Source: Desulfatiglandales bacterium
Lineage (GTDB): Bacteria; Desulfobacterota; DSM-4660; Desulfatiglandales; Desulfatiglandaceae
DNA: 64,000 bases
Assembly: GCA_963662465.1 (NCBI GenBank)
Contig: OY759599.1
Span: 2,208,001-2,272,000 of the forward strand
Direction: 5' to 3'
The stretch's first letter is position 1, and every line of letters starts with the position of its first letter. Below the pieces are notes generated by a model. The model was not told the DNA's origin, made no database searches, and was given only the letters and a program-made list of their open reading frames with translations. Positions 12,262 to 61,139 of this stretch are shown here, one piece after another. The position numbers were made by a program, and so were the translations under genes.

Positions 12262-12329
12262 CGTATGAGACGAAGAGGCGCTAACATGTGGGAACAGACA
12301 AAACGGAAGCGCTGGAATGGCCAACCGCC

Positions 12330-12465
12330 CTTTCATGGCGAAAGGGGAAAACCGAAGCGCTGCATGCACGATTCGTCATAGGCGCAGACGGCGCTGCTTC
12401 CGTGGTCCGCAGATCCATATTCCCTGATCTGAAGGTTCGTTTTTCGGGTCCCATCCGGGAATCAC
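12330..12465 (+). pseudogene. Internal fragment of a geranylgeranyl-reductase-type FAD oxidoreductase
   Basis: ALHARFVIGADGAASVVRRSIFP (IGADG motif) without the N-terminal GxGxxG or the C-terminus; bounds approximate. Confidence 0.6.
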
Positions 12466-26162: not shown

Positions 26163-26742
26163 GGCTTTCCCTCTATCCGTGCGGCCCGACCGTGGATACA
26201 GGTGGCATCAGCCAGAAGATCGTTCGGCAGGGAAATCCCCAGCTCCCTTGCCACATCCAGGTTCAAACCAAAGGTCATTTTCCGGTAACGTTCAAAGGGA
26301 ATTTTTGCCGGGTCCTCCCCTTTCAGTATCCGGTCCACCAGACGCGCCGCCTGCATGCCGCTCATGGCATAATCATAACCGAGGGTCGCCAAAGCGCCAT
26401 CCGACAAGCGCTCCACGTCGCTCATGAATATGGGAATTTTCCCGGATCGGGCGGCTTTGACCACCGATTCAAAAGCCGAATAAACAATGTTGTCGGGCGC
26501 CAGCACAAAGGCGTCAATCCCCCGGTTCACCAGGGAACGGGCCGCCTCGTACACCTCGGATGAACCGGTAATGGCGGCCCCCACGACGGTTATATGACCG
26601 GATGCGGCCGCAGCCTTTTTCAGGTTCTCCACATTGAACACGGAATTGGCATGGGCGGGATCCCATATGGTTCCGATGGTAATCGTTCCCGGAACGAGCC
26701 TGCGAACAATCTCAAGGGTCTTTTCCATGGGGACCCACCCAT
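26159..26742 (-). pseudogene. 3' part of the IS-disrupted ABC permease/substrate-binding fusion gene
   Basis: Removing the IS and one target copy restores ...NVTGVYGWVPMEKTLEIV... in frame. Confidence 0.9.
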
Positions 26743-26884
26743 CAGAGTTCCTGGTAAATGACCTTTACGCAACTTAACTGTTTGAAATCGTTATACTGGA
26801 GCTTCTCATAATTTCGTGTGCATTTCAGATTTTAGTGCAGCGTAACTAGCTGAAAATATTAGGTGGGGCAAAATATTTTTTTTA

Positions 26885-26913
26885 TTGACAAATGAAAACT
26901 GAAAAATTATCTT
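26885..26913 (+). promoter_or_regulatory. Sigma70-type promoter of the transposase
   Basis: TTGACA-17 nt-TATCTT; predicted +1 coincides with ATG 26920. Confidence 0.6.
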
Positions 26914-26919
26914 CAGACC

Positions 26920-29187: not shown

Positions 29188-29241
29188 AGCCTTGCTCATC
29201 GTTTCAGCCATCCTACGCAGGGTATCGTGTTTCGACCACAT

Positions 29242-29267
29242 GTAGGGGCGAAAAATCTTTCGCCCTA
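29242..29267. repeat. GTAG-type REP-like hairpin within the IS right end
   Basis: GTAGGGGCGAAAAATCTTTCGCCCTA. Confidence 0.55.
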
Positions 29268-29356
29268 ATGGCCGAAACAATGATCAAGGCCGCTGTTGAA
29301 CTAAATGCACAATTTGAATTGAGAAAAAACGTCATTTACTATGATGTCTGACCCAT

Positions 29357-30692
29357 ACACGCCGGTCACATTTTGAAGATGCGCCGTTTCCGATTCCCCG
29401 GCCCCGATGAGAAACGGATTTGCCACCGTGGCAAACACCACGGGGCGGTCCTTCACCTTGTTGATGGCGGCCTGGGTACATGCCGTGGAAATGGGAACCA
29501 CAATATCCACATTCCGCTGCAGGAACTTGTCCAGAATCGTATTGACCGTCGCAAGATCGCCATTGGCGTTTTCAAGCATGATCTCAAAGTGGTTGTCCTT
29601 CTCGTAGCCCAACTGCGCCATCTCTTTGACAAAGCTGTCGCGGGTGATATTCAGCAATCCATGATCCACCACCTGAACAATCCCGATGGTGGTTGTCCGT
29701 GAATGATCCGACGGCCCCTGCATATGGCTCCTGAAAACTACCAAACCGAGAAGGATGATCCCCATGCCCACCAGGCCCAGGGTGATCCTCCGGGTGGTAA
29801 AGAGGGCTGTAATCCTTGCAAACATGTTACGAGTGCCCCCGATCCGTTTTGAAACCACGAGGGTCGCCAGCACAAAGGCGGCCGTCAGGAGTTTGAGATC
29901 AATGGGATTCATCCCCATGTAGAGCGCCGCGGCAATCATCAACCTGAAGATCACCGAACCGAGAATCACACTCAGAACGATGGCAAACATGGAACGCATT
30001 CTCAGAACGGCTTCGCCGATAATGACCGAAGCAAGGCCGATAACGATGGTCCCAATCCCCATGCCGATGTCCGCAAATCCTTGATATTGCGCAATCAGAC
30101 CACCGGACACCCCCACCAGGCCATTGGCCAGGGCCACACCGAACACCGTCATCCGGTTTACATGTATCCCCGCCGCCGCGGCCATGTCCGAATTGTTGCC
30201 GGTCACCCGCATGGCAACCCCCATGTCGGTCTTGAGAAAGAGCGACATCCCCCACCAGAACAGCGCCATGATGATCAGTAGCGCCAGTGTGATCCATGCC
30301 TCCTCGTGAAAACCCGGGTTTATGCTTTCAATCCAGGTAAAGAGGGTGATCCGGTTGAGAAGGGGGATATTGGACCGGCCCATGACATGCAGGTTGATGG
30401 AATAAAGACCGGTCATGACCAGAATTCCGGCCAACAACCCGTTGATCTTGAGGCGGGTATGGATGAGCGCCGTGATGCTTCCGGCGGCGGCGCCCGCCCC
30501 AAAAGCCGCCAGGAGCGCCACAAAGGGGTTGACGCCCGACACCATCAGAACGGCCGCTACAGCAGCCCCGGTGGTAAAGCTGCCGTCCACCGTAATATCC
30601 GGGAAATCATGCACCCGGAAGGTGAGAAACACCCCCATGGTCATGAAGCCGTAAAGAAATCCGAGGTTAAGGGCGCCGATCCAGAGTTCCAT
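29357..30692 (-). pseudogene. 5' part of the IS-disrupted ABC permease/substrate-binding fusion gene
   Basis: MELWIGALNLG..FPDITVDGSF permease followed by IGIVQVVDHGLL..PVVFATV binding domain; reconstructed gene is 639 aa. Confidence 0.9.
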
Positions 30693-31917
30693 TCGTTTCT
30701 CCCACTTCCATCTCCACCACGCCCACGACCCCGTTTTTGAAAAGGCTGCGACCCATGAGATGCTGAATTCCGAGGGGTTCAAACTCAGTCAATATGCGCA
30801 GGATCTCATGTTCAAAACCGGCCGGATCAGTGCTGAAAAGCCCCTTGCCGAAGAGACCCGCATGCACATGGAAATCCTGCCCCCTGGGGATGCATGACTG
30901 CATGGATCGGGGTAGAAGCCCCCTCTCCCTCACCGCAATTCCCACACCCGCAACCACATGGTGGATAAAGGCCGGTTCCACCGGTAGATCCATCCAGTCA
31001 TGGATGTGGGCAGGGCTAAAAATATCTTCTCCCGCCCCGGTCTGAAGGTCGCTTATGGGAACCCGCTTGAGATGCATCCCCCATATCCCCCTGCTCTCCC
31101 CCAGGAACACCAAGCCCAGAAGAGGGGCATCTGAAATTTGGAAAAGGGCCTTGATCAGGTTATCCAGAGACGCCCCGCAGTCCGCGCCCTCAAAGGCTGC
31201 CACATGGCGGTATGCTCCCTGGAAAGTGAGTCCATTTAAAAACCGGTATGGAATAGGCGGGTTCCCTTTTGACCAGAGCATGAAGTCCACGGCCGCTTGT
31301 TTAACCGCCGGATAGAAAAAGAAATTGTGATCAATCACCATAGCCTCGCCGAAGAGGTCCTTGAAATGATCCCATTGCCGGCCAAGGCTTCCCAGTCCCA
31401 AACCGAACTTCATGTGGCAAGACTGAACCGTGGCCACGTCCCCCGCTTCATAGGCGGCATAGATCAACCCCTTCGGGTCTCCCAGAAGGTTCATTGAACC
31501 CGGGGACCCTTCTTTTTCCAGACAGTTGAAGCGAATGCCGCAGATGTTTTTTGAAACCGGTTCTGAATCTTTTACGTCATCCCGAACCGTCAGGGCAGCT
31601 TCCTCCCGGGTCGCAACAATGCGAAAAAGCGTATCCAGACCGCTCATCTTCAGCAAATCCTGAACATCCGGCTGAACATGGGCCATGATAATCTGCCCCC
31701 CCACCCGCATGAGTTTTTTCTGAGCCGTCAAAAAAACGCGGATGCCCGCGCTGCTCATATAGTTGACCCCTTCCAGGTCCGCACCGATAATCCGTTCACC
31801 GGCGGCCAGAAGCGCATCCAGCTTCCGACCGATTTCTCCGGCGCTCATGGCATCTATACGGCCCTTCAAGATCAGCCATCCAAGACCGAAACTCTCTTCA
31901 TTGGTGCATTCAAGCAT
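30667..31917 (-). CDS. STAS (anti-sigma antagonist) domain fused to an unrecognised ~300 aa domain
   Basis: LKGRIDA..DLEGVNYMSSAGIRVFL..LKMSGLD. Confidence 0.8.
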   Translation of the reverse strand: MLECTNEESFGLGWLILKGRIDAMSAGEIGRKLDALLAAGERIIGADLEGVNYMSSAGIRVFLTAQKKLMRVGGQIIMAHVQPDVQDLLKMSGLDTLFRIVATREEAALTVRDDVKDSEPVSKNICGIRFNCLEKEGSPGSMNLLGDPKGLIYAAYEAGDVATVQSCHMKFGLGLGSLGRQWDHFKDLFGEAMVIDHNFFFYPAVKQAAVDFMLWSKGNPPIPYRFLNGLTFQGAYRHVAAFEGADCGASLDNLIKALFQISDAPLLGLVFLGESRGIWGMHLKRVPISDLQTGAGEDIFSPAHIHDWMDLPVEPAFIHHVVAGVGIAVRERGLLPRSMQSCIPRGQDFHVHAGLFGKGLFSTDPAGFEHEILRILTEFEPLGIQHLMGRSLFKNGVVGVVEMEVGETNGTLDRRP

Positions 31918-40394: not shown

Positions 40395-40703
40395 ATGCTC
40401 AACCTACAATTAAAAGTGCCGGCGGAAACTGCGCGCCGGCTGAAAAAAGTTCTGGAATATACTCAAAACCAAGAAACCTTTGCGGAAAATATCATCGCAT
40501 ATCAGATTGCCGAAATGAAGAAAGGCAACTTGAACATGAGGCTTGATCTAAAGCAGTTTGAGGAAAAATACCAGATGAACTCAGAAATATTTTACCGTGA
40601 ATTTGTGCAAGGGAAGCTGGAAGACACTGAAGACTATATGGTATGGGCCGGACTTTACGAGATGTTGGAGAAGAATAAAACGCGGCTCCAGGAATTGGTA
40701 TGA
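40395..40703 (+). CDS. Putative antitoxin (TumA-like)
   Basis: LKQFEEKYQMNSEIFY..G..ED..DYMVWAGLY; AGGAGG RBS; ATGA overlap with next gene. Confidence 0.7.
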   Translation: MLNLQLKVPAETARRLKKVLEYTQNQETFAENIIAYQIAEMKKGNLNMRLDLKQFEEKYQMNSEIFYREFVQGKLEDTEDYMVWAGLYEMLEKNKTRLQELV

Positions 40704-41080
40704 TCGAAACCTATTTCTTTCAGATCGAAGCGATTCTAAAGGAGTTTCCCTCGATTCGTTTCTATACTCTCAGGAAAAAGATCTACAACATCAACCAGGG
40801 ATTTCTCAGTGGTTCGATTGTATTTCAAAATGGTCACCTCCTGGATTTCGCTGAAGTCAAAGATGTCGAAGTCCTTGCAAAAATAAAATACCGCTACCAG
40901 TATATGAACGAACGTCAGGAAGTCATTTTCCGATACGACAATGCGCCGCATCACCGACACCTCAAGACGTTTCCTCATCACAAGCATCTTTCCGATGGCA
41001 TTGAAGAGAGTGAAGAGCCTGCGCTATTTGATGTATTGTTGGAGATCGCCCAACGAGAACGGACCAATCCCTTACCATAA
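40700..41080 (+). CDS. Putative toxin, DUF6516/TumE-like
   Basis: KYRYQY..IFRYDNAPHH..TFPHHKH. Confidence 0.78.
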   Translation: MIETYFFQIEAILKEFPSIRFYTLRKKIYNINQGFLSGSIVFQNGHLLDFAEVKDVEVLAKIKYRYQYMNERQEVIFRYDNAPHHRHLKTFPHHKHLSDGIEESEEPALFDVLLEIAQRERTNPLP

Positions 41081-48427: not shown

Positions 48428-48470
48428 TTGACACAAAATTCACCTAATGGTATTAAGTAACCCTCGGTTA
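48428..48470 (+). promoter_or_regulatory. Sigma70-type promoter with adjacent palindromic operator candidate
   Basis: TTGACA-17 nt-TATTAA with TGn extension, then TAACC-CTC-GGTTA over the predicted start site. Confidence 0.55.
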
Positions 48471-48735: not shown

Positions 48736-49407
48736 ATGCCAGGCAAGGTTCAAAAGACGAATACAAAAGAGCGCATTATTGATTCTGCAAGGGAACTGTT
48801 TGCTGAAAAGGGATATCAGCAAACAACGGTAGTGGATATTTCCAAAAAGGCAGGTCTTTCAGAGGCGGCGCTTTATGAATATTTTCAGGGAAAGGAAGGC
48901 CTTTTGCTCACCATCCCCGACCTGTGGGTATCTCAGTTACTGAATGATCTTGACGGACAGCTATTTGGCATTAAGGGCGCTTCAAATAAATTAAGGAAGT
49001 TTTTGTGGTGGTATCTTCACAAGGTGGAGGAATCCCCGCTGGATGCCAAGATCGTTTATCTGTTCCTTAAAACGAACGCCAACTTCATGAAAACAGAAGT
49101 GTATAGCAATGTGAAGGCGCTCTATGGAAACTTGATTGATATTTTTGAAGAAGGACGGTGTGAAGGTGAAATGAAGCCGGACCTCAATCCCTATTTCGCC
49201 AGGGATATTCTCATCGGGACCATGGAACATATGGTTACCCGCTGGCTTTTGAAAGAGAGGACTTATTCACTGTTTGAAAATCTGGAAGAAGTTTTCGAGT
49301 TAATGCTGGATGCGTTTAAAGCCGCCGGCGAGACGTCGTCGGTGGAAAAAGGTAAAAGTGGCGCGAATAGATTAGGGAGACCTGATGATGAAAATAAACA
49401 GGATTGA
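48736..49407 (+). CDS. TetR/AcrR-family regulator
   Basis: IIDSARELFAEKGY..TTVVDISKKAGLSEAALYEYF. Confidence 0.93.
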   Translation: MPGKVQKTNTKERIIDSARELFAEKGYQQTTVVDISKKAGLSEAALYEYFQGKEGLLLTIPDLWVSQLLNDLDGQLFGIKGASNKLRKFLWWYLHKVEESPLDAKIVYLFLKTNANFMKTEVYSNVKALYGNLIDIFEEGRCEGEMKPDLNPYFARDILIGTMEHMVTRWLLKERTYSLFENLEEVFELMLDAFKAAGETSSVEKGKSGANRLGRPDDENKQD

Positions 49408-49804
49408 TCATATATGTATTGCGGTCAAGGATTTGGAGGCGGCCAAGAAGGTCTGGGAGCCCATGTTGGGTAAATCAGGTCCTGATGATGCCTATGTTGA
49501 TGAACTTGAAAAGATCAATGTGGCCAGATACTATGTCGGTGAAGTCGGATTTGAGTTGATGGAATCGACGACCCCTGATGCAGACGTGGCAAAGTTCATT
49601 GCCAAGAACGGTGAGGGGATCATGCTCATCAGTTTTAATGTGGACAACACCAGAAAGGCCATTGATGAACTGAAGGCGAAGGACTATCCGTTTATTCCGG
49701 ATTCAAGAGGCGAACTTGCAAGACCTTTTCGGGATTGCGAATTCGCTTTTATACACCCCAAAAAACTAAATGGCGTTCTGACCGAACTTATCGATGATAA
49801 ATAG
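49385..49804 (+). CDS. VOC-family protein (methylmalonyl-CoA epimerase-like), copy 1
   Basis: IDHICIAVKDL, FELME, FIHPK..GVLTEL. Confidence 0.88.
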   Translation: MMKINRIDHICIAVKDLEAAKKVWEPMLGKSGPDDAYVDELEKINVARYYVGEVGFELMESTTPDADVAKFIAKNGEGIMLISFNVDNTRKAIDELKAKDYPFIPDSRGELARPFRDCEFAFIHPKKLNGVLTELIDDK

Positions 49805-49854
49805 GACGAGTTTAAGCATGGTTTTTCGGCGGGATATTTATATAGGGGGAAGAA

Positions 49855-51894
49855 ATGAGATACGCGGAAACAGGGTTTAATTTAGAAGTCGATTTGACTC
49901 TGGGCAATATTGAGCGGGTAGAAACAGACCCGGAAATAACCAGACTTCATCTGGGTGGCAATGGCAGTGCCGCTAGAATTATATGGGACAGAGTGAGTCC
50001 GGAGACCGATGCCTTTTCTCCTGATAATCTGCTCATATTCAGCGCGGGCCTCTTTGACGGTACGCCTATACCAGCAGCCAACCGAACGATGGTCGATACC
50101 ATTTCTCCCCAGACGAACATGTGGTCTAATTCGATTTTTGGCGGTTATTTTGGGCCGGAACTCAAACATGCCGGCTACGATAAGATCGTCATTAAAGGCA
50201 AAGCCGAAGATCTGGTATATTTATGGATACACAATGACAAAGTGGAAATACGGGATGCCTCTCACCTCAAGGGGGTAGGCGCTCAGGCGACCGCACATGC
50301 CATTAAAGATGAATTAGGCGATCGTAACATTCAAGTGGCCGCCATCGGTCTTGCCGGCGAAAACAGGCTTTTGATGGCCTCCATAGAACACTACAACGCC
50401 GCCGCAGCGCGTGGCGTCGGGTCGGTTATGGGGGATAAGCGGCTCAAGGCCATAGCCGTGCGCGGCACAAAAGATTTTCAGGTTGCCGAGCCCGAAGAGC
50501 TGTTCAAATTATGTCTTAAGCACTATCAGGATATCCATGAAAGTCCCTTTAACGGGGACCTCATGGCAATCGAATGGAACGATGCCTGGCACCATAACAA
50601 TTTTGCCTGGGGCAATGCACGCACACGGAGAAGAGACTTCTGGACCCAGGAGCAGGAAGACCGGTGGAAGGAATACACGCTGAAAATCCGTGACCGGTTA
50701 CAGGGCTGCTATAATTGTCCCAAAAACTGCCACCTCGTGGTCAAACCACCCGGACGGCAAAGGTACATCTTAAAATGCTTCGGAAAAGGCACCTGGCATA
50801 TGGCGGCTTTCGAAGAGCTTCCATTTACCTTTGACATACTGGCCTTAAGCCAGGAGTACGGCGTCGATAGCTATGCGGCGCCGCAAACCATCGCTTTCGC
50901 CATCGAACTTTACGAAGCAGGCATTTTAACGGACAAGGAGCTGCCTGATTTTCCGGAAAAATCCGCCGACAGGTTTTACTATCTTCTTGAAAAGCTTGTC
51001 CGGAGGGAAGGGATCGGGGATGTCCTGGCCAATGGCGTCTATCGGGCCGCCCGTGAGATCGGCAACGGCGCCGAAGAATATGATCATAACACCATGAAAA
51101 AATTTGAGCAGATACCGCTCAAGCTGGGAAGAGTGAATTATCCGTATTACCTCATGTACTGCACCAGCGACAAGATGGCCATTAATCAAACTGAGGGCTC
51201 TTTTCCGCAGGACCCCATTAAAGACCTTAAGGAGAGACAGGAATTCGCCGATGGTTGGATGTCGGCGCCAGTGAGGTTCAAAAAATTCTTCATGGAATGG
51301 GAACCGCGCTCACATCAGTCATTTGAAGCGGCCATTAACATTTGCGATTGGAACGAAACCATGCACTACATGGATGACGCCCTTGGCATTTGCGCCTTCT
51401 GTTCATCATTCAGGGGTCAGTTCGGCGGCGGCTCAGCCTATAACATCTATAATGTACCTCATTTTATCAAACTGGCGACCGGGATCGAAATGGATTCCGA
51501 CGACTTGTGGCAAGTCACCAGAAGAAGCCGCAATCTTGTGAGGGCCATCAATATCAGCAGAGGATTGAAAAGAGCCGACGAGAAGCCACCCGCGGACCAC
51601 TGGATAAAAAGGGAGCCGGAAAACGAGCAGAAACTTCTTGACGGCTACTACAAATTCAAGGGCTGGACCAACGAAGGCGTTCCCACAAAACAGACTTTGG
51701 ATAAATTGGGCTTAAGCGATGTCGCGGATGAACTCATCCGACGGGGACACCTTAAAGGCGATGAAGATATTTGCTATACGGATCAATCCTGTTACTCAGA
51801 AGATAGACCTAGACCAAAAAATAGTGCGGAAGCGCTGAAGTTCCGTAAGGCCAAGAATTTCACTCTAACTGAGTATATTGACAAGAATAAATAG
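49855..51894 (+). CDS. bamB: Tungstopterin AOR-family protein, class II benzoyl-CoA reductase BamB-like (divergent)
   Basis: MRYAETG start, WGNARTRRRDFW, CYNCPKNC, LKCF, YYLMYCT, MHYMDDALG; followed by bamC-I-like genes. Confidence 0.85.
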   Translation: MRYAETGFNLEVDLTLGNIERVETDPEITRLHLGGNGSAARIIWDRVSPETDAFSPDNLLIFSAGLFDGTPIPAANRTMVDTISPQTNMWSNSIFGGYFGPELKHAGYDKIVIKGKAEDLVYLWIHNDKVEIRDASHLKGVGAQATAHAIKDELGDRNIQVAAIGLAGENRLLMASIEHYNAAAARGVGSVMGDKRLKAIAVRGTKDFQVAEPEELFKLCLKHYQDIHESPFNGDLMAIEWNDAWHHNNFAWGNARTRRRDFWTQEQEDRWKEYTLKIRDRLQGCYNCPKNCHLVVKPPGRQRYILKCFGKGTWHMAAFEELPFTFDILALSQEYGVDSYAAPQTIAFAIELYEAGILTDKELPDFPEKSADRFYYLLEKLVRREGIGDVLANGVYRAAREIGNGAEEYDHNTMKKFEQIPLKLGRVNYPYYLMYCTSDKMAINQTEGSFPQDPIKDLKERQEFADGWMSAPVRFKKFFMEWEPRSHQSFEAAINICDWNETMHYMDDALGICAFCSSFRGQFGGGSAYNIYNVPHFIKLATGIEMDSDDLWQVTRRSRNLVRAINISRGLKRADEKPPADHWIKREPENEQKLLDGYYKFKGWTNEGVPTKQTLDKLGLSDVADELIRRGHLKGDEDICYTDQSCYSEDRPRPKNSAEALKFRKAKNFTLTEYIDKNK

Positions 51895-51902
51895 TCCGAG
51901 AG

Positions 51903-52469
51903 GTGAAAAGAGCAATGGGTAAACCGGTAAAAAAAATAATTAAAGAAATAAAAGTAGACTTAAGCAAATGCAACGGTTGCCGCGCCTGTGAGCAAGCCTG
52001 TGCTGCATTTCACGCCGTACCGAAATACAGTTGCTTCAACCCGGCCCGCTCTCGGATCAAGGTGGTCATCGATGAAAGAAACGATCAATGGGTGCCGGTT
52101 CGCGCCGGCGGCTATACGCAGGCCGAATGCAGCGGCCGGAGCCATTATGTGATCGCGGGCAAGGAGTATTCGGAATGCGCTCTATGTCCGGCGTCCTGCC
52201 CATCGAGGGATTGGTTCAAGGAACCTGATTCGGGTCTTCCTCTCAAATGCGACATGTGTGAAGATGTACCCCCGCTTTCGGAACCCATGTGTGTACAGAT
52301 GTGCGCTCGTGATTGCTTGACCTATTCGGAAAGGGAAGTGTTTGTGGACGAGGAAGAAACGCAGGAAGCAGAAAATGTAATAGAGTTAAAGACGGCCTAC
52401 GAGGCACTCGTGAAGAAACACGGGCAAAAAAAAGTCGTGGATACTTTTTCTCGATTATCACAGCGCTAA
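51903..52469 (+). CDS. bamC: Ferredoxin-like Fe-S subunit BamC
   Basis: CNGCRACEQAC, CALCPASCPSRDWFKEPDSGLPLKCDMC; start may be ATG 51915. Confidence 0.88.
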   Translation: MKRAMGKPVKKIIKEIKVDLSKCNGCRACEQACAAFHAVPKYSCFNPARSRIKVVIDERNDQWVPVRAGGYTQAECSGRSHYVIAGKEYSECALCPASCPSRDWFKEPDSGLPLKCDMCEDVPPLSEPMCVQMCARDCLTYSEREVFVDEEETQEAENVIELKTAYEALVKKHGQKKVVDTFSRLSQR

Positions 52470-52477
52470 GAAGAAAA

Positions 52478-52571
52478 AGTTATCAGTTATCAGTTATCAG
52501 TAACAGCCTATTGATATTAATTTCAAAATCACCTCCAGTCCTGACAACTGACAGCTGAAAACTGACAACTG
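52478..52571. repeat. Inverted heptamer arrays between bamC and bamD
   Basis: (AGTTATC)x3 ... CTGACAA-like x4; the arms are complementary with G-U pairs or mismatches. Confidence 0.75.
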
Positions 52572-52598
52572 CTGTACAAAAGCGGAGGCTAAAAAAGA

Positions 52599-53759
52599 GT
52601 GGAGACTGTAGCACCCTTAGAAGAGGTATTGGATCTCATAAAAGAGACCGGTGGTGAATCTTTCAGGTATTGCTATCAATGCGGCTTGTGCGATGTTGTC
52701 TGTCCGTGGAATCGGGTTCGAGACTTCAGTATGCGCAAGCTGATCCGGCAGGCCAATTTCGGGTTGACTGAGATAGAAACAGAAGAGATCTGGCGTTGTA
52801 CGACCTGCGGAAGATGCAAGCAGAGTTGCCCCCGGGGTGTCAATCAGATAGAAGTCGGGGTATCCTCACGCAGAATTGCCACGGAATTCGGTGTATTTCC
52901 TACATCCGTACGTCCGGTGCGCGGTGTAAGTTCCAGCCTGCTCGGCGAAGGCAATCCCTTGAGTGAAGACCGAAAGAATCGAGCGGATTGGGCCAAAGGT
53001 CTGTCCGTAAACACCTTCACTAAGGGGATGGAGATTTTGTATTTCCCCGGCTGCTACCCCAGCTATGACCCCAGATTGAAGAAAGTAGCTGCCGCCACGG
53101 TGAAGATCCTTAAAAAGGCAGGGGTCGATTTCGGGATACTGGGAACCAAAGAGAACTGTTGTGGTGAAAGCATCCGCAAGACCGGCGATGAGGAATGTTT
53201 CAATCGTTTGGCCAGGGAAAATATCAAAACGTTTATCGACAATGGCGTCAAGAAAATCCTTGTTTCTTCCCCGCATTGCTACCACACCTTCAAGAACGAG
53301 TATCCCGAGTTTATGGTACACTTTGAAGTGGTTCATATGAGCCAGTATATATTCGAGCTCATCAATGCGGGCAAACTTGAACTCACCAAGAGCTATGACA
53401 AGAAAATTACCTACCATGATCCCTGTTACCTGGGTCGTCATAACGGCATTTTTGACGAACCCCGGGAGACTTTAAAAGGGATATCCGGTTTGGAACTGGT
53501 TGAAATGCCTGATTCGCGTGAAGACAGCCTCTGCTGCGGCGGGGGTGGCGGCAGGATTTGGATGGAAACACCCAAAGGAGAGAGATTCTCCGATCTCAGA
53601 GTGGAACAGGCCAGGGGCGTTGGCGCAGAGGTGCTGGTGACAGCCTGTCCGTATTGCATCACCCATTTTGAGGATAGCCGCTTAGCCCTGGAAGATTCGG
53701 ACACCGGCGCAGGTGTTGAGGTTAAGGACATCACGGAAATTATCCAGGAAGTGATTTAG
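52599..53759 (+). CDS. bamD: HdrD-like Fe-S protein with CCG domains, BamD
   Basis: CYQCGLCDVVCP, CTTCGRC, ENCCG, YHDPCYLGRHN, CCGGGGG. Confidence 0.88.
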   Translation: METVAPLEEVLDLIKETGGESFRYCYQCGLCDVVCPWNRVRDFSMRKLIRQANFGLTEIETEEIWRCTTCGRCKQSCPRGVNQIEVGVSSRRIATEFGVFPTSVRPVRGVSSSLLGEGNPLSEDRKNRADWAKGLSVNTFTKGMEILYFPGCYPSYDPRLKKVAAATVKILKKAGVDFGILGTKENCCGESIRKTGDEECFNRLARENIKTFIDNGVKKILVSSPHCYHTFKNEYPEFMVHFEVVHMSQYIFELINAGKLELTKSYDKKITYHDPCYLGRHNGIFDEPRETLKGISGLELVEMPDSREDSLCCGGGGGRIWMETPKGERFSDLRVEQARGVGAEVLVTACPYCITHFEDSRLALEDSDTGAGVEVKDITEIIQEVI

Positions 53760-53794
53760 GGAATCCATAAAACCAAAATTAAGGACGGAAAGAA

Positions 53795-56700
53795 GTGGAA
53801 AAAGAATTGGTTGAAGGACAGTTTGCTAATCGTCCCGTAGACGGTAATTTTGGAGACGTGATGGTTGTCGGTGGCGGCATCAGCGGCATTCAGGCCTCAC
53901 TTGACCTGGCGGATACGGGCTTTAGGGTGTATCTGGTTGATAAAGCACCGGCCATCGGTGGAAAGATGTCCCAACTGGACAAGACCTTTCCCACAAATGA
54001 CTGCTCCATGTGTATTGAGTCGCCAAAATTTATTGAATGCAGCAGACATCCCAATATAGAGATTCTGACATACACTGAAGTTGAGCGTATAAAAGGAAAG
54101 CCCGGAGACTTCAAGGTCACCCTGACCAAAAAGCCAAGATACATCATAGAAGAAAGATGCACCGGTTGTACGAGTTGTGTTGAGGTTTGCCCGGTCAAGG
54201 TCCCGGATGAATACAATCAAAACCTTTCTTTGAATAAGGCCATCCACATCTACTTTTCTCAGGCCGTTCCGCTGATTACTTATGTGGACCCGAATACCTG
54301 CCTTTATCTCCAGGATGAAAAATGCAACATCTGTATCGGTGTCTGTCAAAATAAAGCGATCGATCTTAACCAAAAGGAAGAGACGATCCAAATAGAGGTG
54401 GGCGCTATCATCATGGCGCCGGGGTTTGAGGTATTTAACCCAAAACTTCGGAATGACTATGGCTACGGCATCATGGAAAATGTGGTGACCAGCCTGGACT
54501 TTGAACGGATACTTTGTTCCACCGGCCCCTATGAGGGGGAGATAAGACGGCCTTCCGACAAAAAACATCCGAAGAAAATCGCCTGGATTCAGTGCGTGGG
54601 ATCCCGGCAAGTCATTGAGGGCGGGAACAGCTATTGTTCCGGCGTATGCTGCGCGTATACGCAAAAACAGGTGATCCTGGCAAAGGATCATGAAGAGGAT
54701 CTTGAAGCTAAGATTTTCCATAACGATATTCGTGCATTCGGCAAGGATTTCGAGCGGTTTTATCAGCGTGCGGAAAACCTGCAAGGCGTTGAATTTATCA
54801 GAAGCTATGTCGTGGTCAGCAAAGAGGACCCGGAAACAAAAAATGTCTCCATAAGATATTCGACGACGGATGGCGGCGTTAAGGAAGAAGAATTTGAACT
54901 CGTTGTATTATCCGTGGGGTTAAACCCGCCCAAGGATGCGGAAGCATTGGCGAACCAGTTTGGCATTGAGCTTGACGAACACGGGTTCTGCAAATCCAAT
55001 CCGCTAAATCCCATTGAGACCACGCGGCCGGGAATTTTTGTCAGCGGCGCGTTTCAGGGGCCCATCGATATTCCCGAGTCAGTCATGGGCGCCAGTGGGG
55101 CCGATGCCCTCTGCAGTCAGCTGTTGGCGTACCGCCGCGGAGATCTTGCCATAGACCGGGTCTATCCGCCGGAGAGGGATGTATCCCAGGAGGCGCCCCG
55201 TGTGGGGGTTTTTGTATGCCATTGCGGCGCCAATATCGGCAGGGTGGTGGATGTGCCGGCGGTTGTAGCGTATGCGGCCGGTCTTCCAAATGTGGTGCAT
55301 GCCCAGGAGAGCCTTTTTGCCTGCTCCACGGACAATGCCAAGCAGATATCGGGTCAGATACGGGAAAAAGGACTCAACCGGGTGGTGGTAGCCGCCTGCA
55401 CGCCAAGAACCCATGAGCCGTTATTCAGGGATACCTGCCGTGAAGGGGGTATCAACCAATACTTCTATGAAATGGCCAATATCAGAGAACACTGCGCCTG
55501 GGTGCATTCCAAGGATCCGGAGAACGCCACCCGGAAAGCCAAGGAGATCGTTCATATGTCCGTGGCCCGGGCTTCGCTTTTGGCTCCCCTCAAGGAATAT
55601 GAGCTGCCGGTGAACAAAACAGCATTGGTGGTCGGCGGCGGGCTTGCCGGCATGACCAGTGCGCTCAGCATGGCCAAACAGGGATTTCAAGTTCAGCTGC
55701 TGGAAAAGGATAAGGCGCTGGGAGGCATGGCGCGAAGAATTCATACCACCCTGGAAGGGATGGATGTTCAGGCTTTCTTAAAAGACATGATCAAAAAGAT
55801 ATATCAACATCCTTTGATCCGGATCACCCATAATGCGACCATCACGAATGTGATGGGATATGTGGGCAACTTCGTCACCACGGTAAAGAGCGACGGACGG
55901 GTCAAAGACATTAAGCATGGCGCCGCCATTCTTGCCACGGGGGCGGTGGAATACAAACCCACCGAGTACCTTTACGGAGAAAACGATCAGGTGCTGACCC
56001 AGCTGGAGCTGGAAGCGCGGATCAGCCAAAAAGATGGAGCGCTGAGCCAAACCGGCAGTCTGGTCATGATTCAATGCGTCGGGTGCCGAAACGAGGACAG
56101 AAATTACTGTTCCCGCATCTGTTGCAGCCACGCCATAAAGAATGCCATGAACCTGAAAGCGCTGAATCCCAAAATGAACATCTACATTCTCTTTAGAGAC
56201 ATGAGAACCTATGGGTATCGGGAAGATTATTATCGTGAGGCCGCCGATAAGGGCGTGAAATTTATCCGCTGGGAATCGGATGCGGGGCCCGAAGTGGAAC
56301 CAACCACCGAGGGCGGTAAAAACATATTAAGAGTGACGGTGCCGGACCCCATCCTGGGCCAACGATTGGAACTGGATGCGGATATCCTGACACTCTCAGC
56401 CGCGGTAATTCCATCTGAAGACAGTACGGAAGTGGCGCGGCTGTTCAAGGTGGCCATGAATCCGGACGGTTTCTTTCAGGAAGCCCATGTAAAATTAAGG
56501 CCGGTAGATTTTGCGGCCGAGGGGGTATTTTTGTGCGGTACCGCGCATTACCCCAAGCATATCACGGAGAGCATCACCCAGGCATATGGCGCGGCGGGTC
56601 GAGCGGTCACTATCCTGACCAAGGATTCGGTGACGGCCTCGGGCGCTGTCTGCGAGGTCGATGAAAGCGCATGCGAATCGTGCGGGGCATGTATATCCGT

Positions 56701-56872
56701 TTGTAACTATGGCGCCATAGAATTTCACGAAACAGAAAAAGGCAAGAAGGCCAAGGTGAATCCGGTTCTCTGTAAAGGGGACGGTCTTTGCAACACGGTG
56801 TGTCCGGCGAGGGCAATTTCTTTGAAACACTTTACCGATGATGAGATCTTTTGCCAGATTGATGCGGCCTAG
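53795..56872 (+). CDS. bamE: HdrA-like flavoprotein BamE
   Basis: Two GGGxxG FAD domains, LDKTFPTNDC, IQCVGSR/IQCVGCR, GVFVCHCG, ferredoxin motifs. Confidence 0.9.
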   Translation: MEKELVEGQFANRPVDGNFGDVMVVGGGISGIQASLDLADTGFRVYLVDKAPAIGGKMSQLDKTFPTNDCSMCIESPKFIECSRHPNIEILTYTEVERIKGKPGDFKVTLTKKPRYIIEERCTGCTSCVEVCPVKVPDEYNQNLSLNKAIHIYFSQAVPLITYVDPNTCLYLQDEKCNICIGVCQNKAIDLNQKEETIQIEVGAIIMAPGFEVFNPKLRNDYGYGIMENVVTSLDFERILCSTGPYEGEIRRPSDKKHPKKIAWIQCVGSRQVIEGGNSYCSGVCCAYTQKQVILAKDHEEDLEAKIFHNDIRAFGKDFERFYQRAENLQGVEFIRSYVVVSKEDPETKNVSIRYSTTDGGVKEEEFELVVLSVGLNPPKDAEALANQFGIELDEHGFCKSNPLNPIETTRPGIFVSGAFQGPIDIPESVMGASGADALCSQLLAYRRGDLAIDRVYPPERDVSQEAPRVGVFVCHCGANIGRVVDVPAVVAYAAGLPNVVHAQESLFACSTDNAKQISGQIREKGLNRVVVAACTPRTHEPLFRDTCREGGINQYFYEMANIREHCAWVHSKDPENATRKAKEIVHMSVARASLLAPLKEYELPVNKTALVVGGGLAGMTSALSMAKQGFQVQLLEKDKALGGMARRIHTTLEGMDVQAFLKDMIKKIYQHPLIRITHNATITNVMGYVGNFVTTVKSDGRVKDIKHGAAILATGAVEYKPTEYLYGENDQVLTQLELEARISQKDGALSQTGSLVMIQCVGCRNEDRNYCSRICCSHAIKNAMNLKALNPKMNIYILFRDMRTYGYREDYYREAADKGVKFIRWESDAGPEVEPTTEGGKNILRVTVPDPILGQRLELDADILTLSAAVIPSEDSTEVARLFKVAMNPDGFFQEAHVKLRPVDFAAEGVFLCGTAHYPKHITESITQAYGAAGRAVTILTKDSVTASGAVCEVDESACESCGACISVCNYGAIEFHETEKGKKAKVNPVLCKGDGLCNTVCPARAISLKHFTDDEIFCQIDAA

Positions 56873-56886
56873 AAGGAGTAAAAAAA

Positions 56887-57654
56887 ATGGGTAGAGGACT
56901 GGAATTTAAACCCAGCATCTTAGGGTTTTTATGCAACTGGTGAGGATACTCCGCTGCTGATTTGGCTGGAGTTTCCAGACTACAATATGCGTCAGATATT
57001 AAGATTATTCGTGTCATGTGTACCGGCAGGGTCGACTTGTCATTTATCTTCCGAGCGCTTTTGAATGGTAAGGACGGCGTATTGATCGGCGGATGCCATC
57101 TCGGTGAATGCCATTATGTGACCCAGGGAAATTATGGTGCGTTCAGTACGCTTTACATCGGAAGAAAACTCCTCGAAACCATCGGGCTTAACCCCGAGAG
57201 GTTAAGGCTCGAGTACATTGCCGCCTCCGAGGGGAGCCGGTACGCCGAGGTGATGAATGACTTTTCTTCGAAGGTGAGGGAATTGGGACCTCTCGGTAAG
57301 GGTGAGGGGATGGATGGAACCGTTTTAAGGCGAAAACTTGAAGTGGTTTATAATTTAGTCCCATACATAAAACTCGTGGAAAGAGAGCGGTTGCGCGTGC
57401 CGGTAAAATCAGTCGAGGCGTACAAGGCGTTTTTCACGGGTGATGAATTTGATAAAATATTCCAGGAGTTGGTTGCGGATAAGATGGAAATGGGCCAAAT
57501 GATGGCGATCCTTCGAGAAAAACCTTGTTCAGCCAAAGAGATTTCTGAAATTTTAGGGGTAACGCCGGGTGAAGCGTCCAATCAGCTGAAACGCTCCGCG
57601 AGGCAGGGATTTGTCGAATTTGATGAAAGCCATATGCGCTTTTGTGTTGCATAG
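56887..57654 (+). CDS. bamF: MvhD-like selenoprotein BamF (Sec at codon 19, UGA 56941-56943)
   Basis: AGGAG RBS + MGRGLEFKPSILGFLCNW-U-GYSAADLAG..RVMCTGRVD..GGCHLGECHY; U occupies the Cys of the MvhD CNWC motif; the ORF track starts too late. Confidence 0.92.
56948..56972 (+). promoter_or_regulatory. SECIS element of bamF
   Basis: ACTCCG-(CT bulge)-GCT-[GATTT loop]-GGC-TGGAGT; loop G is 16 nt after the UGA. Confidence 0.7.
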
Positions 57655-57708
57655 GGCGATCACCCTTCCAGCAAGCTTGGAAAATAAAGAAGAGTTAGGA
57701 CAGCAGCT

Positions 57709-58161
57709 ATGGATAATGGTAAAATCGAGAAGATTATAGATGGATATCCGAGTGACCCGAGTTCACTGATTCAGGTATTGATCGATATTCAGAGCGAACT
57801 TCGATGGCTTCCCAAGGAAGCATTAAAGTTGGTCAGTCAGAAACTTAACGTACCCATGAACCGGATACAGCACATTATCACCTTTTATAAGGCGTTCAGT
57901 ATCGTGCCCAAAGGACGCCATGAAATTCATGTGTGTACCGGGACCGCCTGTCATGTGCGCGGGGCGACGCGTGTTCTGGATGCAGTTGAAGCGTATACCG
58001 GAATCTGCCCCGGCGAGACGGACGAGAATTTAAAGTACAGCCTTGATACCGTGAGTTGTGTCGGTTGCTGTGCCCTGGGACCGGTGGTGGTCGTTGATGG
58101 CGAATATCATGGCAATATGGGATCGGCAAAGGCCGAAGAAGTGTTGAAAAACTACGAGTAA
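57709..58161 (+). CDS. bamG: NuoE-like subunit BamG
   Basis: VCTGTACHVRG, SCVGCCALGP. Confidence 0.9.
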   Translation: MDNGKIEKIIDGYPSDPSSLIQVLIDIQSELRWLPKEALKLVSQKLNVPMNRIQHIITFYKAFSIVPKGRHEIHVCTGTACHVRGATRVLDAVEAYTGICPGETDENLKYSLDTVSCVGCCALGPVVVVDGEYHGNMGSAKAEEVLKNYE

Positions 58162-58170
58162 GGAAGAATT

Positions 58171-60096
58171 ATGCCAAGGATAAATTCACCCGCTGAATTG
58201 GAAGAATTCAGGAAGGACATTATATCAAGAAGGGATCCCAACACGCCTTGTATTGCTGTATGTACCGGAACGGGCTGCCTTGCTCTCGGTGCGGGCAAAG
58301 TGGTCGCCGCTCTCAAGGAGGAAATCGAAAAACAGGGTCTCGATACCCAGATTGTGGACATGAGGGAGACCGGCTGTCCCGGCTTTTGTGAAAGAGGTCC
58401 CATTGTTGTGATCTATCCTGAGGAGACATGTTATCTTCAGGTGCAACCGGACGATGCAGAGGAGATTATTTCCGAGACCATTGTTGGGAAAAAGGTCATT
58501 GACAGATTGCTCTATGTGGATCCCGAAAGCGGCAAGACCATCGCCCGAGAATCTGAGATCCCATTTTACAAGAATCAGATGCGGCGCTTGATCGGCAATA
58601 ATATCAAAATCAACCCCAAGAGCCTCGAAGACTATCTGGCTGTGGGTGGGTATTCCGCATTATCAAAAGCCCTTGCTCAGGAGACGCCTGAGCAGGTGGT
58701 GGAACTTGTGAAAAGCTCCGGATTGAGAGGGCGGGGCGGCGCGGGATTTCCCACCGGGCTGAAGTGGGGGTTTGCACGGGCTAGTTCTGAAAAGACCAAG
58801 TATGTGATCGTCAATGCCGATGAGGGCGATCCCGGCGCCTTTATGGACAGGGCGCTGCTTGAGGGAAATCCCTTTGCTGTCCTTGAAGGCCTGATCATCG
58901 GCGGGTATGCCATCGGCGCCGGCGAGGGGTATCTTTATGTCCGGCAGGAATACCCCCTGGCCGTGGAAAATGTAACCCTTGCCATCAAGCAGGCCGAGGA
59001 ATATGGATTAATCGGAAAAAATATCCTGGGTTCGGGATTCGATTTCAAAGTTACCGTGCATCGGGGCGCCGGTGCTTTTGTTTGCGGTGAGGAGACGGCC
59101 CTTTTGGCGTCTTTGGAGGGAAAACCCGGCGAGCCAAAGCCAAGACCGCCGTTCCCGGCGGCAAAAGGACTTTTCGGCAAACCCACCAATATTAATAATG
59201 TGGAGACCTGGTCCAATATTCCCCTGATTATTAATCATGGGTCTGAATACTTATCGTCCATCGGCACCGAGAACAGTAAAGGCACCAAAATTTTCTCGCT
59301 CGTCGGGAAGGTAACGAATACCGGCCTTGTGGAAGTTCCCATGGGTATTACCCTGAGAGATATTATATTCAAGATCGGCGGCGGTGTTCCCGGAGGCAAG
59401 AAATTCAAGGCCGTTCAGACCGGTGGGCCGTCAGGCGGTTGTATCCCTGAAGAATCCTTGGATATCAAAGTCGACTTTGATGAATTGGCCAAGGTCGGCG
59501 CGATTATGGGGTCCGGCGGAATGATCGTCATGGATGAAGATACCTGTATGATAGATGTCGCCAAGTATTTTCTTAAATTTTTATCCGGTGAATCGTGCGG
59601 TAAATGCTCTCCTTGCCGTGAGGGCATCACACACATGCTTTCAATCCTGACGAGAATCAGTGAAGGCAAGGGGCGAGAGGGTGATATCGAGTTGCTGGAA
59701 GAGCTCGCTCTATCCACTAAGAGTGCATCCCTTTGCGCCCTGGGCGGGAGCGCGCCGAATCCGGTTCTGAGTACCATACGCTATTTCAGGGATGAGTATG
59801 AAGCCCATATCAGGGACAAGAGATGCCCGGCGTTTGCTTGCAAGGCCCTGATTTCTTACTACATTGATCCGGAAAAGTGCAAGGCTTGTATGATTTGCGG
59901 TCGAAAATGCCCCGCCGGCGCCATTGACGGCGCTAAAAAGAAGATCCATATTATTGACCAGGATAAATGCACAAAATGTGGTACATGTTATGAGGTTTGT
60001 CCCTCGCGCTTTGGTGCGGTAACAAGGCTGTCCGGCGAACCTGTTCCGGATCCTATCCCTGAAGAAGAAAGAGCTATCGTAGGAAAGAGCAAATAA
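58171..60096 (+). CDS. bamH: NuoF-like NADH/FMN-binding subunit BamH
   Basis: GLRGRGGAGFPTG, NADEGDPG, GAFVCGEETAL, ESCGKCSPCREG. Confidence 0.92.
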   Translation: MPRINSPAELEEFRKDIISRRDPNTPCIAVCTGTGCLALGAGKVVAALKEEIEKQGLDTQIVDMRETGCPGFCERGPIVVIYPEETCYLQVQPDDAEEIISETIVGKKVIDRLLYVDPESGKTIARESEIPFYKNQMRRLIGNNIKINPKSLEDYLAVGGYSALSKALAQETPEQVVELVKSSGLRGRGGAGFPTGLKWGFARASSEKTKYVIVNADEGDPGAFMDRALLEGNPFAVLEGLIIGGYAIGAGEGYLYVRQEYPLAVENVTLAIKQAEEYGLIGKNILGSGFDFKVTVHRGAGAFVCGEETALLASLEGKPGEPKPRPPFPAAKGLFGKPTNINNVETWSNIPLIINHGSEYLSSIGTENSKGTKIFSLVGKVTNTGLVEVPMGITLRDIIFKIGGGVPGGKKFKAVQTGGPSGGCIPEESLDIKVDFDELAKVGAIMGSGGMIVMDEDTCMIDVAKYFLKFLSGESCGKCSPCREGITHMLSILTRISEGKGREGDIELLEELALSTKSASLCALGGSAPNPVLSTIRYFRDEYEAHIRDKRCPAFACKALISYYIDPEKCKACMICGRKCPAGAIDGAKKKIHIIDQDKCTKCGTCYEVCPSRFGAVTRLSGEPVPDPIPEEERAIVGKSK

Positions 60097-60097
60097 A

Positions 60098-60730
60098 ATG
60101 AGCAAAATTCATTTACAGATCGATGGAAGAGAAGTCGAAGCGGAAGAAGGGATGACCATCCTGGAAGCTGCCCGTAGTGTGGGGATCAATATTCCGACCC
60201 TTTGTTATCACGAGCTGTTGGAACCCTATGGGGCTTGCCGAATTTGCGTGGTTGAAGTGGAAGCCGGCGGCAGAAAAGGTCTTGCCGCAGCTTGCGTTCG
60301 TCCGGTAGACCAAAACATGGTCGTCATTACTCGAAATGAACAAATCAATGGCATACGCAAAATATTGATAGAGCAGTTTCTGGCTCATGCGCCGGATTCC
60401 GAAATCCTGTTGAAATTGGGTGAAGAGTACGGCGCCGATAAGGATCGATTTGAAAAACAGTCCACTTTCTGCATTCTGTGCGGCCTTTGTGTGAGATATT
60501 GTGCTGAGGTTAAAAAGAAAAACGCCATCGGGTTTTTTGACAGAGGCTCAACCCGGGAAATAAAATTCATTCCTGAGATTGCCGCCAAGGCGTGTAAAGA
60601 TTGCAAAGAATGTTTTCCGCTCTGCCCGACATCGTATCTGCAGGCTGCTTATCATTTGACCGAAGCGCTCGCGTTTCCTTCAACTCCTTTTGAAAAAGGA
60701 AAAGTGTTTGATGAAAATAAACAAGATTGA
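60098..60730 (+). CDS. bamI: NuoG N-terminal-like Fe-S subunit BamI
   Basis: IPTLCYH..GACRICVVE, CILCGLCVRYC, CKDCKECFPLCP. Confidence 0.88.
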   Translation: MSKIHLQIDGREVEAEEGMTILEAARSVGINIPTLCYHELLEPYGACRICVVEVEAGGRKGLAAACVRPVDQNMVVITRNEQINGIRKILIEQFLAHAPDSEILLKLGEEYGADKDRFEKQSTFCILCGLCVRYCAEVKKKNAIGFFDRGSTREIKFIPEIAAKACKDCKECFPLCPTSYLQAAYHLTEALAFPSTPFEKGKVFDENKQD

Positions 60731-61139
60731 TCATATGTGTATTGCGGTTAAGGATCTGGAGGCAGCCAAGAAGGTCTGGGAGCCCATGTTGGGCAAGTCA
60801 GGTCCTGATGACGCCTATGTCAGTGAACCTGAGAAGATCAATGTGGCCAGATACTGGATCGGCGAGGTCGGATTTGAGTTGATGGAATCAACCTCTCCCG
60901 ATGGAGACGTGGCAAAGTTCATCGCCAAAAACGGTGAGGGCGTGATGCTCGTAACGTTTAACGTGGACAACACCCGAAAGGCCATTGATGAACTGAAAGC
61001 GAACTATCCGTTCATTCCGGATTCAAAAGGCGAGGTTGCAAGACCTTTTCGGGACTGCGAATTTGCCTTTATACATCCCAAAAAACTAAATGGCGTTCTG
61101 ACCGAGCTGATTGATTATAAATGGGACGAATTCAAATAA
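60711..61139 (+). CDS. VOC-family protein (methylmalonyl-CoA epimerase-like), copy 2
   Basis: Near-identical protein to 49385-49804. Confidence 0.88.
   Translation: MKINKIDHMCIAVKDLEAAKKVWEPMLGKSGPDDAYVSEPEKINVARYWIGEVGFELMESTSPDGDVAKFIAKNGEGVMLVTFNVDNTRKAIDELKANYPFIPDSKGEVARPFRDCEFAFIHPKKLNGVLTELIDYKWDEFK

Follow-up and report, generated by a model that had tools for sequence, protein, structure and literature searches.

The closest described relative of the system reported here is the benzoyl-coenzyme A (CoA) reductase of class II from Geobacter metallireducens, a tungsten enzyme complex of composition Bam[(BC)2DEFGHI]2 whose BamBC part has been solved (4Z3W-4Z40). Strict anaerobes often carry several copies of bamB, the gene of the catalytic subunit, but we know of biochemical work on the canonical type only; what the extra copies do matters for forecasting the range of aromatic pollutants and natural products that is open to degradation by a community. 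Here we describe an eleven-gene cluster, tetR-VOC-bamBCDEFGHI-VOC, on a 64,000-nt stretch of DNA from a Desulfatiglandales bacterium (positions 2,208,001 to 2,272,000 of contig OY759599.1; the whole stretch is called the window below). It shares with the G. metallireducens system the same eight subunits, in the same order and with the same domains, as well as the tungsten-ligand Cys, the Fe-S Cys residues, the proton-donor His and the selenocysteine (Sec) of BamF; it differs in the residues around the active site of BamB, in a C-terminal BamB tail, in predicted control by a TetR protein and in the VOC genes that flank it. Our favoured reading, held tentatively and at a little short of even confidence, is that the cluster would encode a class II aryl-CoA reductase with regulation of its own, acting on an analogue of benzoyl-CoA and not on benzoyl-CoA itself. 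The analysis narrows the question of what extra copies do for one well-defined clade, as it names the residues that set the clade apart and finds it as an extra copy in six of six genomes.

All eleven genes are co-directional on the plus strand between 48736 and 61139 (Table 1), and all frames are open as judged from the open reading frame (ORF) listing, from the DNA itself and from Pfam, which returns the expected domains in every gene. The gene order, intact frames and bamF Sec codon given in the initial annotation were thereby borne out. The tetR and VOC 1 genes overlap by 23 nt. The in-frame TGA of bamF lies in the motif CNW-U-GY, a position at which both other bamF genes of the genome and five related loci have it too; a hairpin directly 3' of it (-15.6 kcal/mol, z -1.53) is weak taken alone. 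BamE of the window has Cys in 'TNDCSMC', as do seven of seven related window-type loci, at a position that is occupied by a Sec codon in both other bamE genes of the genome. The partners of a holo-complex were all found: an adjacent BamC, the HdrD/HdrA/MvhD-like BamD/E/F and the NuoE/F/G-like BamG/H/I, with Sec in BamF only. The eleven genes are best explained as a single operon encoding all parts of a self-contained aryl-CoA reductase complex, and we are highly confident that this complex is of class II (containing tungsten and selenium, ATP-independent and electron-bifurcating). A relic or pseudogene cluster was rejected on the strength of the intact frames and of 78-96% conservation of the clade across phyla. 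By every architectural test the cluster is class II machinery, but the supposedly invariant proton relay is altered in it, and its BamB does not group with the enzymes that have been studied.

Alignment of the window BamB with G. metallireducens BamB (PDB 4z3w_A; 759 bits, E 4e-227, query residues 1-634 against chain residues 1-651) confirms that the tungsten-ligand Cys (window Cys308, first base 50776; G. metallireducens Cys322), the proton-donor His (window His246; G. metallireducens His260) and the 'EG.FPQ' motif are retained, as had been proposed. These residues, together with the three plus one [4Fe-4S] Cys (C285, C288 and C292 of CxxCxxxC and the distal C513), are invariant in 33 aligned BamBs of all types. 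The proposed departures were also seen: the loop before the proton-donor His is 10 residues shorter and the Glu251 position falls inside the deletion, QEMKVHDEKWH becomes AIEWNDAWH (His255 to Trp, Glu257 to Asp), SSFPLKPPY becomes SSFRGQFGGGSAY with an RGQFGG-type insertion, and about 45 residues, against a predicted extension of about 40, continue beyond the C-terminal end of the 4z3w_A alignment. A 2025 review (PMC12096430) names Glu251, His255, Glu257 and His260 as invariant zinc and proton-relay residues, and His260 and Glu251 as the sole polar residues of the pocket; three of these four (Glu251, His255 and Glu257) are not kept in the window protein. An AlphaFold model built with 33 sequences (mean predicted local distance difference test score (pLDDT) 77, predicted template-modelling score 0.86) has 4z3w_A as its first structural match (TM 0.85/0.88, 52% identity), in keeping with an AOR-family fold, and places the tail at pLDDT 84-95 up to residue 660; its low-confidence parts are the loops lining cofactor and substrate (232-238, 285-290, 412-423, 441-449 and 514-526).

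To place these differences we used a tree of 101 BamB rows (IQ-TREE quick search, LG+G4, AOR outgroup), from which L091, L092 and L109 (in-frame stop as extracted), L119 (partial) and eleven exact duplicates had been dropped; the rows are the best matches to the window protein and thus a biased sample. Two deep lineages emerge. The long-loop lineage (37 rows, SH-aLRT 99), recognisable by GSPQEM..DE.WH and SSFPLKPPY, includes the canonical copy, which is about 80% identical to G. metallireducens BamB. The short-loop lineage (62 of 101 rows, support 100) shares the 10-residue deletion and the RGQFGG insertion and holds the window BamB, which therefore does not nest with canonical BamBs. A short-loop protein is the only BamB in two of five genomes checked, G407 and the Actinomycetota metagenome-assembled genome (MAG) G408, and in the latter the bamB-I set is complete (L030) and a ring hydrolase scores 555 bits, above the family cut-off. 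The initial annotation had taken the altered residues as the mark of a new substrate. For the shorter loop and RGQFGG this does not hold, because both are lineage-wide and a short-loop BamB can be a genome's sole copy; the truly clade-specific changes are others. We also observed short-loop BamB-like paralogs whose tungsten-ligand Cys has become Asn or Ser ('KNYGKL', 'KSFCKL', 'KSYCKL'; P0025, L067 from 8031, L061 from 7334), often adjoining a Cys-bearing copy.

Within the short-loop lineage the window protein belongs to a clade of 17 of the 101 rows (support 100) whose sister is a Pelotomaculum isophthalicicum protein. Its members include a 96% identical twin in a Desulfatiglandales MAG, proteins of Thermincola and other Bacillota, and three proteins annotated merely as paralogs or as uncharacterised aldehyde:ferredoxin oxidoreductases: Desulfobacula toluolica Tol2 'BamB2' (CCK82299; 87-88% identity to the window protein, 87% for its 90% cluster), 'Aor8' (CCK82301; about 79-81%) and Syntrophus aciditrophicus ABC78737 (78%), all with the same motifs and tail. 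AIEWNDA[W/F]HH, KC[F/Y]GKGTWH after the tungsten ligand and TSDKMAINQ occur in all clade proteins, and the tail 'ICY.DQSCY...RKAE.FTLTEY' is conserved in 17 of 17 rows. Forty-three alignment columns are fixed differently between canonical (30 rows) and window-type (17 rows) BamBs. Those that also differ from other short-loop BamBs comprise, in G. metallireducens numbering, H255W, D256N, E257D and T261H; L326G, Y328W and T329H just past the ligand Cys322; and G452S, E453D, N456A, T458N and L537C. These changes amount to a rebuilt environment for both the tungsten ligand and the proton path, two of the substituted residues being new His, and they form the real argument for an altered reaction.

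The clade is patchily distributed. A 400-genome sample of the phylum, with two candidates scored per genome, contained no other genome with a match of at least 75% (best 64%), and a query derived from the tail found 2 of 209 genomes of the class, namely the source genome and one of the same genus. Literature searches on BamB2 and Desulfobacula, on D. cetonica and on 2-aminobenzoyl-CoA with tungsten returned no functional study of the clade, and among sequencing runs no RNA data set containing the stretch turned up. The Desulfococcus multivorans paper (PMC5109826) treats BamB1 of strain Tol2, not BamB2, as canonical, and the accessible supplement text of PMC11887813 holds no BamB entries.

That the window gene is a paralog was confirmed by the genome itself, in which a second, canonical bamB had been suggested as something to look for. 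The window lies within a single contig of 8.16 Mb (49.5% G+C) that carries three bamB genes, so the window copy is not the sole one. The bamB at 5.07 Mb is canonical (1266 bits to 4z3w_A, relay motif identical letter for letter) and the one at 7.95 Mb is a third, long-loop copy (1014 bits, His255 to Thr), against 759 bits for the window protein. Second long-loop paralogs of this kind (Gmet_1802, D. multivorans BamB1 and the 7.95-Mb copy) are likewise extra BamBs beside a canonical one and 64-67% identical to it; they belong to a different lineage from the window protein, and in the 7.95-Mb copy only His255 is changed. A long-loop BamB is also present in five of the five other genomes that have a window-type BamB. 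Both other sets of the source genome are bamBCDEF without bamGHI, with Sec codons in both bamE and bamF, and their BamF proteins have two extra [4Fe-4S] motifs resembling the C terminus of BamH; no close BamGHI besides that of the window occurs in the genome, whose next-best BamH-like protein is 56% identical. Lower-pathway genes are, as had been noted, absent next to the window cluster: we found no dch, had or oah adjacent to it, and the single had-oah-dch set (C1:4.7528-4.7559 Mb) adjoins none of the three bamB sets. Their absence is not distinctive and does not single out the window cluster, because it applies equally to the other two.

Two further features of the genome's tungsten-enzyme genes were observed. 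The bamCDEF genes of the canonical and third sets (L008 11689-17466 and L009 11308-17025) resemble a recent duplicate, with equal ORF sizes and BamF proteins near-identical over about 215 residues, while the two bamB genes differ by about one third. A fourth set on the minus strand (C1:2664866-2677916, L090) combines an ordinary AOR-type protein with BamC-like, BamE-like (52%) and BamD-like (49%) partners and also contains a short-chain dehydrogenase/reductase, an amine-oxidase-like flavoprotein, electron-transfer flavoprotein alpha and beta subunits and a membrane HdrD-like protein.

Separate regulation of the paralog, also claimed in the initial annotation, gains support from a tetR gene of its own and a predicted operator over the promoter. 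The 17-bp palindrome ACCTAATGGTATTAAGT at 48442-48458, in a 700-nt AT-rich spacer before tetR, contains the -10 box TATTAA, and an alignment of eight promoters shows no variation in TTGAC or in the core of the palindrome. We compared 29 window-type loci with at least 700 nt of upstream sequence (10 from genomes, 18 from metagenomes, of which three are near-identical, and the window itself). The promoter/operator composite precedes nine of the twelve tetR genes; of the other three, two offer less than 100 nt of upstream sequence and the third shows no match with up to two mismatches allowed. The perfect 15-mer CCTAATNNNATTAGG occurs in four other genomes (4.7-7.7 Mb) only at such loci, once each in G403 and G404 and twice each in G606 and G401, and the reversed pattern used as a control gave 0, 0, 1, 0 and 0 matches. 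A regulon search in G403, G404 and G606 found the perfect operator only at the bam cluster itself and thus revealed no ligase or transporter. The TetR protein has TetR_N and TetR_C_4 domains, the latter of the YsiA-type C-terminal family, and scores 100.9 bits against the NCBIfam FadR model (cut-off 200). Its best solved relatives are Bacillus subtilis FadR/YsiA (1vi0, 3whb; about 69 bits, full length), followed by MbdR of Azoarcus sp. CIB (4uds; 39.6 bits); it shares with both the fold and the C-terminal domain family and, through its predicted operator, a palindromic site overlapping the promoter; its scores to the two solved proteins are only 69 and 40 bits. It has no close paralog in the genome, where only the match to itself exceeds 80 bits. 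FadR/YsiA is released by acyl-CoA and MbdR by 3-methylbenzoyl-CoA, and MbdR is a precedent for a TetR protein that controls a specialised reductase for a benzoyl-CoA analogue. The window TetR is probably an acyl-CoA sensor, and the operon is likely to be under its dedicated control; the FadR-like TetR and its predicted 17-bp operator over the -10 box are a new element of this operon.

The VOC proteins proved less informative than had been proposed. VOC 1 and VOC 2 score 80.9 and 74.1 bits against TIGR03081, below its cut-off of 114.95, and the His of 'GEGIQH/GEGIHH', which we take to be a metal ligand of methylmalonyl-CoA epimerase, is missing from all 11 Bam-linked VOCs compared, which have Leu or Ile instead (Leu in VOC 1), whereas it is kept in the genome's epimerase-like protein at 4.93 Mb and in a solved relative. 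On these two grounds, scores and replaced His, we rejected true methylmalonyl-CoA epimerases. Nor is the VOC protein special to this bam type: VOC genes of this kind also sit beside long-loop and other short-loop bam sets (L032, L072, L084). They form a Bam-associated subfamily, and a reasonable guess, though no more than that, is that they act as isomerase or tautomerase at the alpha-carbon of a reduced CoA ester. The suggestion that linkage to tetR and VOC might define a clade fails on counts: among window-type loci TetR is present in 12 of 29, VOC in 7 of 29 and both in 4 of 29, and a single locus carries a PAS kinase with a sigma-54 activator instead.

Neighbours of the window-type genes elsewhere fit aromatic or alicyclic CoA-ester metabolism, as far as their predicted families go, without fixing the substrate. 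Apart from TetR and VOC (12 and 7 loci), the recurrent non-Bam neighbours among 34 sequences are Liv-type ATP-binding cassette (ABC) transporter parts (4-5 loci) and genes of the benzoate-CoA-ligase family (4 loci, of which three are near-identical). At L025, VOC-bamB-bamC is followed by a benzoate-CoA-ligase-family gene (568 bits). L156-158 (about 500-12800) carry a Liv-type ABC importer, a benzoate-CoA-ligase-family gene (510 bits), a formyltransferase-like gene, a second ligase, a Usp/receiver protein and an adenine-deaminase-like amidohydrolase whose gene overlaps the start of bamB in bamB-bamC, and have no bamD-I within 10 kb. The database name of P0169, a Desulfobacula protein from a neighbouring 90% cluster that is 81% identical to the window protein and has all signature motifs, is 'Tungsten-dependent 2-aminobenzoyl-CoA reductase large subunit'; this is a lead only, with which the deaminase-like gene beside bamB in L156-158 would agree.

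Some loci showed arrangements of their own. A sub-group without bamD has bamB-bamC-bamE (L019-L021, L024, L135, L138, L155, L161, L162 and L174), with BamG/H 51-56% identical to those of the window. L018 (62-9054) and L131 (180-9013) have in common upstream genes for a pyridine-nucleotide-disulfide oxidoreductase, a thiamine-pyrophosphate/Fe-S protein, a molybdopterin oxidoreductase, an NrfD-like membrane subunit and FmdE, and an FmdE gene also lies 3' of the third bam set of the source genome (L009 17028-17732).

The source genome has a single perfect operator site, at C1:1313958, about 470 nt upstream of a gene of the Old Yellow Enzyme (OYE) type whose best solved relative is 2-naphthoyl-CoA reductase (NCR; 6qkg, 437.6 bits against 239.9 for FadH). 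The match to NCR (6QKG) is full-length, with the same architecture of OYE and FAD/NAD domains; what sets the gene apart from NCR is its linkage with a split BamE/BamF-like module, a GltD-like protein and a VOC paralog, and its sharing of the bam operator (Table 1). The two HdrA-like genes of this cluster match the two halves of BamE, and the second is fused to an MvhD-like domain. Over about 55 nt the promoter and operator are alike between the window operon and the OYE cluster, and the same holds in the sister genome G401. Such a shared operator suggests that tungsten and class III-like flavin ring reductases can join in one regulon. An OYE ortholog was found in one of the five other genomes with a window-type BamB, G401, and the link between the bam and OYE genes by operator is for this reason a speciality of the genus.

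If the homology to the G. metallireducens complex extends to electron flow, NADH and reduced ferredoxin would enter at BamGHI, and electrons would reach the bifurcating flavin of BamE by way of BamF. The electron of high potential would leave through BamD, while that of low potential would travel via BamC to the BamB tungsten-pterin, at which the bound aryl-CoA would have its ring reduced, with His246 as proton donor. The operon would be held off by its own FadR-like TetR, which would occlude the promoter by binding the 17-bp palindrome over the -10 box, and would be switched on when an acyl- or aryl-CoA ester releases the repressor. Given a dedicated repressor with a unique predicted 17-bp operator, the CoA ester that releases it should reveal the substrate.

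An analogue of benzoyl-CoA is the most likely substrate class in our judgement because the tungsten-ligand and proton-relay residues appear rebuilt and because the sub-clade is always additional to an ordinary BamB in the genomes checked; the guess we prefer is a benzoyl-CoA with an amino or hydroxy substituent, the product of its reduction then entering the single Dch/Had/Oah route. Several observations weigh against this. S. aciditrophicus, which has the 78% identical ortholog, is a narrow specialist for benzoate and cyclohexane carboxylate, a way of life that suits benzoyl-CoA or dienoyl-CoA more than an exotic substrate. Each genome checked has one ring hydrolase above cut-off. An acyl-CoA dehydrogenase gene lies directly upstream in L138, L139 and L161, pointing to an ordinary alicyclic or benzoyl-CoA route, and the neighbours of the clade are otherwise heterogeneous, with tripartite ATP-independent periplasmic (TRAP) transporters, a PaaK-like ligase and OYE genes among them. 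A search of the literature for '2-aminobenzoyl-CoA' with tungsten found no paper behind the name of P0169, which is a lead only. The purified Desulfosarcina cetonica complex, a work said to be by Anselmann et al. in 2019, reportedly has BamGHI, and its BamB may be of window type. The ligase and dehydrogenase neighbours and the S. aciditrophicus ortholog would all suit a benzoyl-CoA reductase isoenzyme, with the canonical substrate, NADH/ferredoxin input through BamGHI and its own regulation by a TetR sensing benzoyl-CoA. We consider this a possibility to be taken seriously, if one that we would not bet on: the window set alone in its genome has BamGHI, as against two ferredoxin-fed BamB-F sets whose BamF has a 2x[4Fe-4S] domain typical of sets lacking BamGHI, some short-loop BamBs are sole copies in a genome with a complete lower pathway (G408), and the catalytic Cys and His are invariant, but the clade-specific replacements are concentrated beside the ligand Cys and in the proton relay, the clade is never the sole BamB in the six genomes looked at, and a dedicated repressor and operator would be unexpected for a housekeeping duplicate.

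The remaining readings are harder to sustain. S. aciditrophicus makes benzoate from crotonate, and its ortholog, like the acyl-CoA dehydrogenase genes just mentioned, could be accommodated by an enzyme working mainly in reverse or on alicyclic intermediates, with dienoyl-CoA aromatised during cyclohexane-carboxylate or crotonate metabolism; this seems very improbable to us, as most hosts are complete oxidisers for which aromatising is not needed, and PMC8805022 (mBio 2022) reports that on crotonate just one of the three bamH genes was expressed, at a low level. It is unlikely, though less so, that in this Desulfatiglans-like genus the BamB2-type complex and the putatively co-regulated NCR-like cluster form one pathway, which would reduce a bicyclic or otherwise special aryl-CoA in two stages and entirely without ATP. 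The only perfect operator of the genome lies upstream of the NCR-like gene, with the promoter/operator region shared here and in G401, and that cluster holds a third VOC paralog, the split BamE/BamF-like module, the GltD-like protein and a dehydrogenase/hydratase fusion; the co-regulation is, however, deduced from the shared site, and an ortholog found only in G401 among five genomes cannot explain the function of the clade generally. Carried to its full extent, and with similarly low confidence, one aryl-CoA-sensing TetR would turn on both the BamB2-type complex and the NCR-like flavoenzyme with its own BamE/BamF-like bifurcation module, and the VOC proteins would isomerise or tautomerise the reduced CoA esters, giving an ATP-free full dearomatisation of a bicyclic or amino- or hydroxy-substituted aromatic acid. 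In naphthalene degraders the corresponding step is carried out by an ATP-dependent class I-type reductase. Were the extended scheme true, it would be a so far undescribed pathway in which a tungsten enzyme does the step assigned to that reductase in known naphthalene degraders.

Table 1. Coordinates of the operon, its predicted control region and the second operator-linked cluster (window positions unless marked C1)
Feature	Position	Strand	Details
Promoter and overlapping putative TetR operator	48428-48458	+	-35 TTGACA 48428-48433, 17-nt spacer, -10 TATTAA 48451-48456
tetR, FadR/YsiA-like repressor	48736-49407	+	Pfam TetR_N and TetR_C_4
VOC protein 1, methylmalonyl-CoA-epimerase-like, distinct Bam-linked subfamily	49385-49804	+	Glyoxalase_4; 139 aa
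bamB, tungsten-pterin catalytic subunit, 'BamB2' clade	49855-51894	+	679 aa; alignment, tree, model
bamC, [4Fe-4S] polyferredoxin partner of BamB	51903-52469	+	194.6 bits to 4z3w_E, solved BamC
bamD, HdrBC/HdrD-like high-potential exit subunit	52599-53759	+	CCG and Fer4 domains
bamE, fused double HdrA-like bifurcating flavoprotein	53795-56872	+	Pfam; Cys at Sec position of other copies
bamF, MvhD-like adaptor with Sec and C-terminal winged-helix part	56887-57654	+	in-frame TGA 56941-56943
bamG, NuoE/HydC-like [2Fe-2S] subunit	57709-58161	+	Pfam
bamH, NuoF/HydB-like FMN/NAD(H) subunit with C-terminal 2x[4Fe-4S] domain	58171-60096	+	Pfam
bamI, short NuoG/HydA-like Fe-S subunit	60098-60730	+	Pfam
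VOC protein 2	60690-61139	+	87.5% identical to VOC 1
OYE cluster	C1:1313958-1325666 (L089 5959-17670)		OYE-type gene, 175-aa unknown, third VOC paralog (82% identical), two HdrA-like genes, GltD-like gene, hydroxyacyl-CoA dehydrogenase/enoyl-CoA hydratase fusion

Elsewhere in the window, a transposase gene (26920-29187) lies between two pieces that match one ABC substrate-binding family (26159-30782), an arrangement resembling an insertion into a transporter operon, and a small ORF at 40700-41080 has a TumE toxin domain (Pfam, 79.5 bits).

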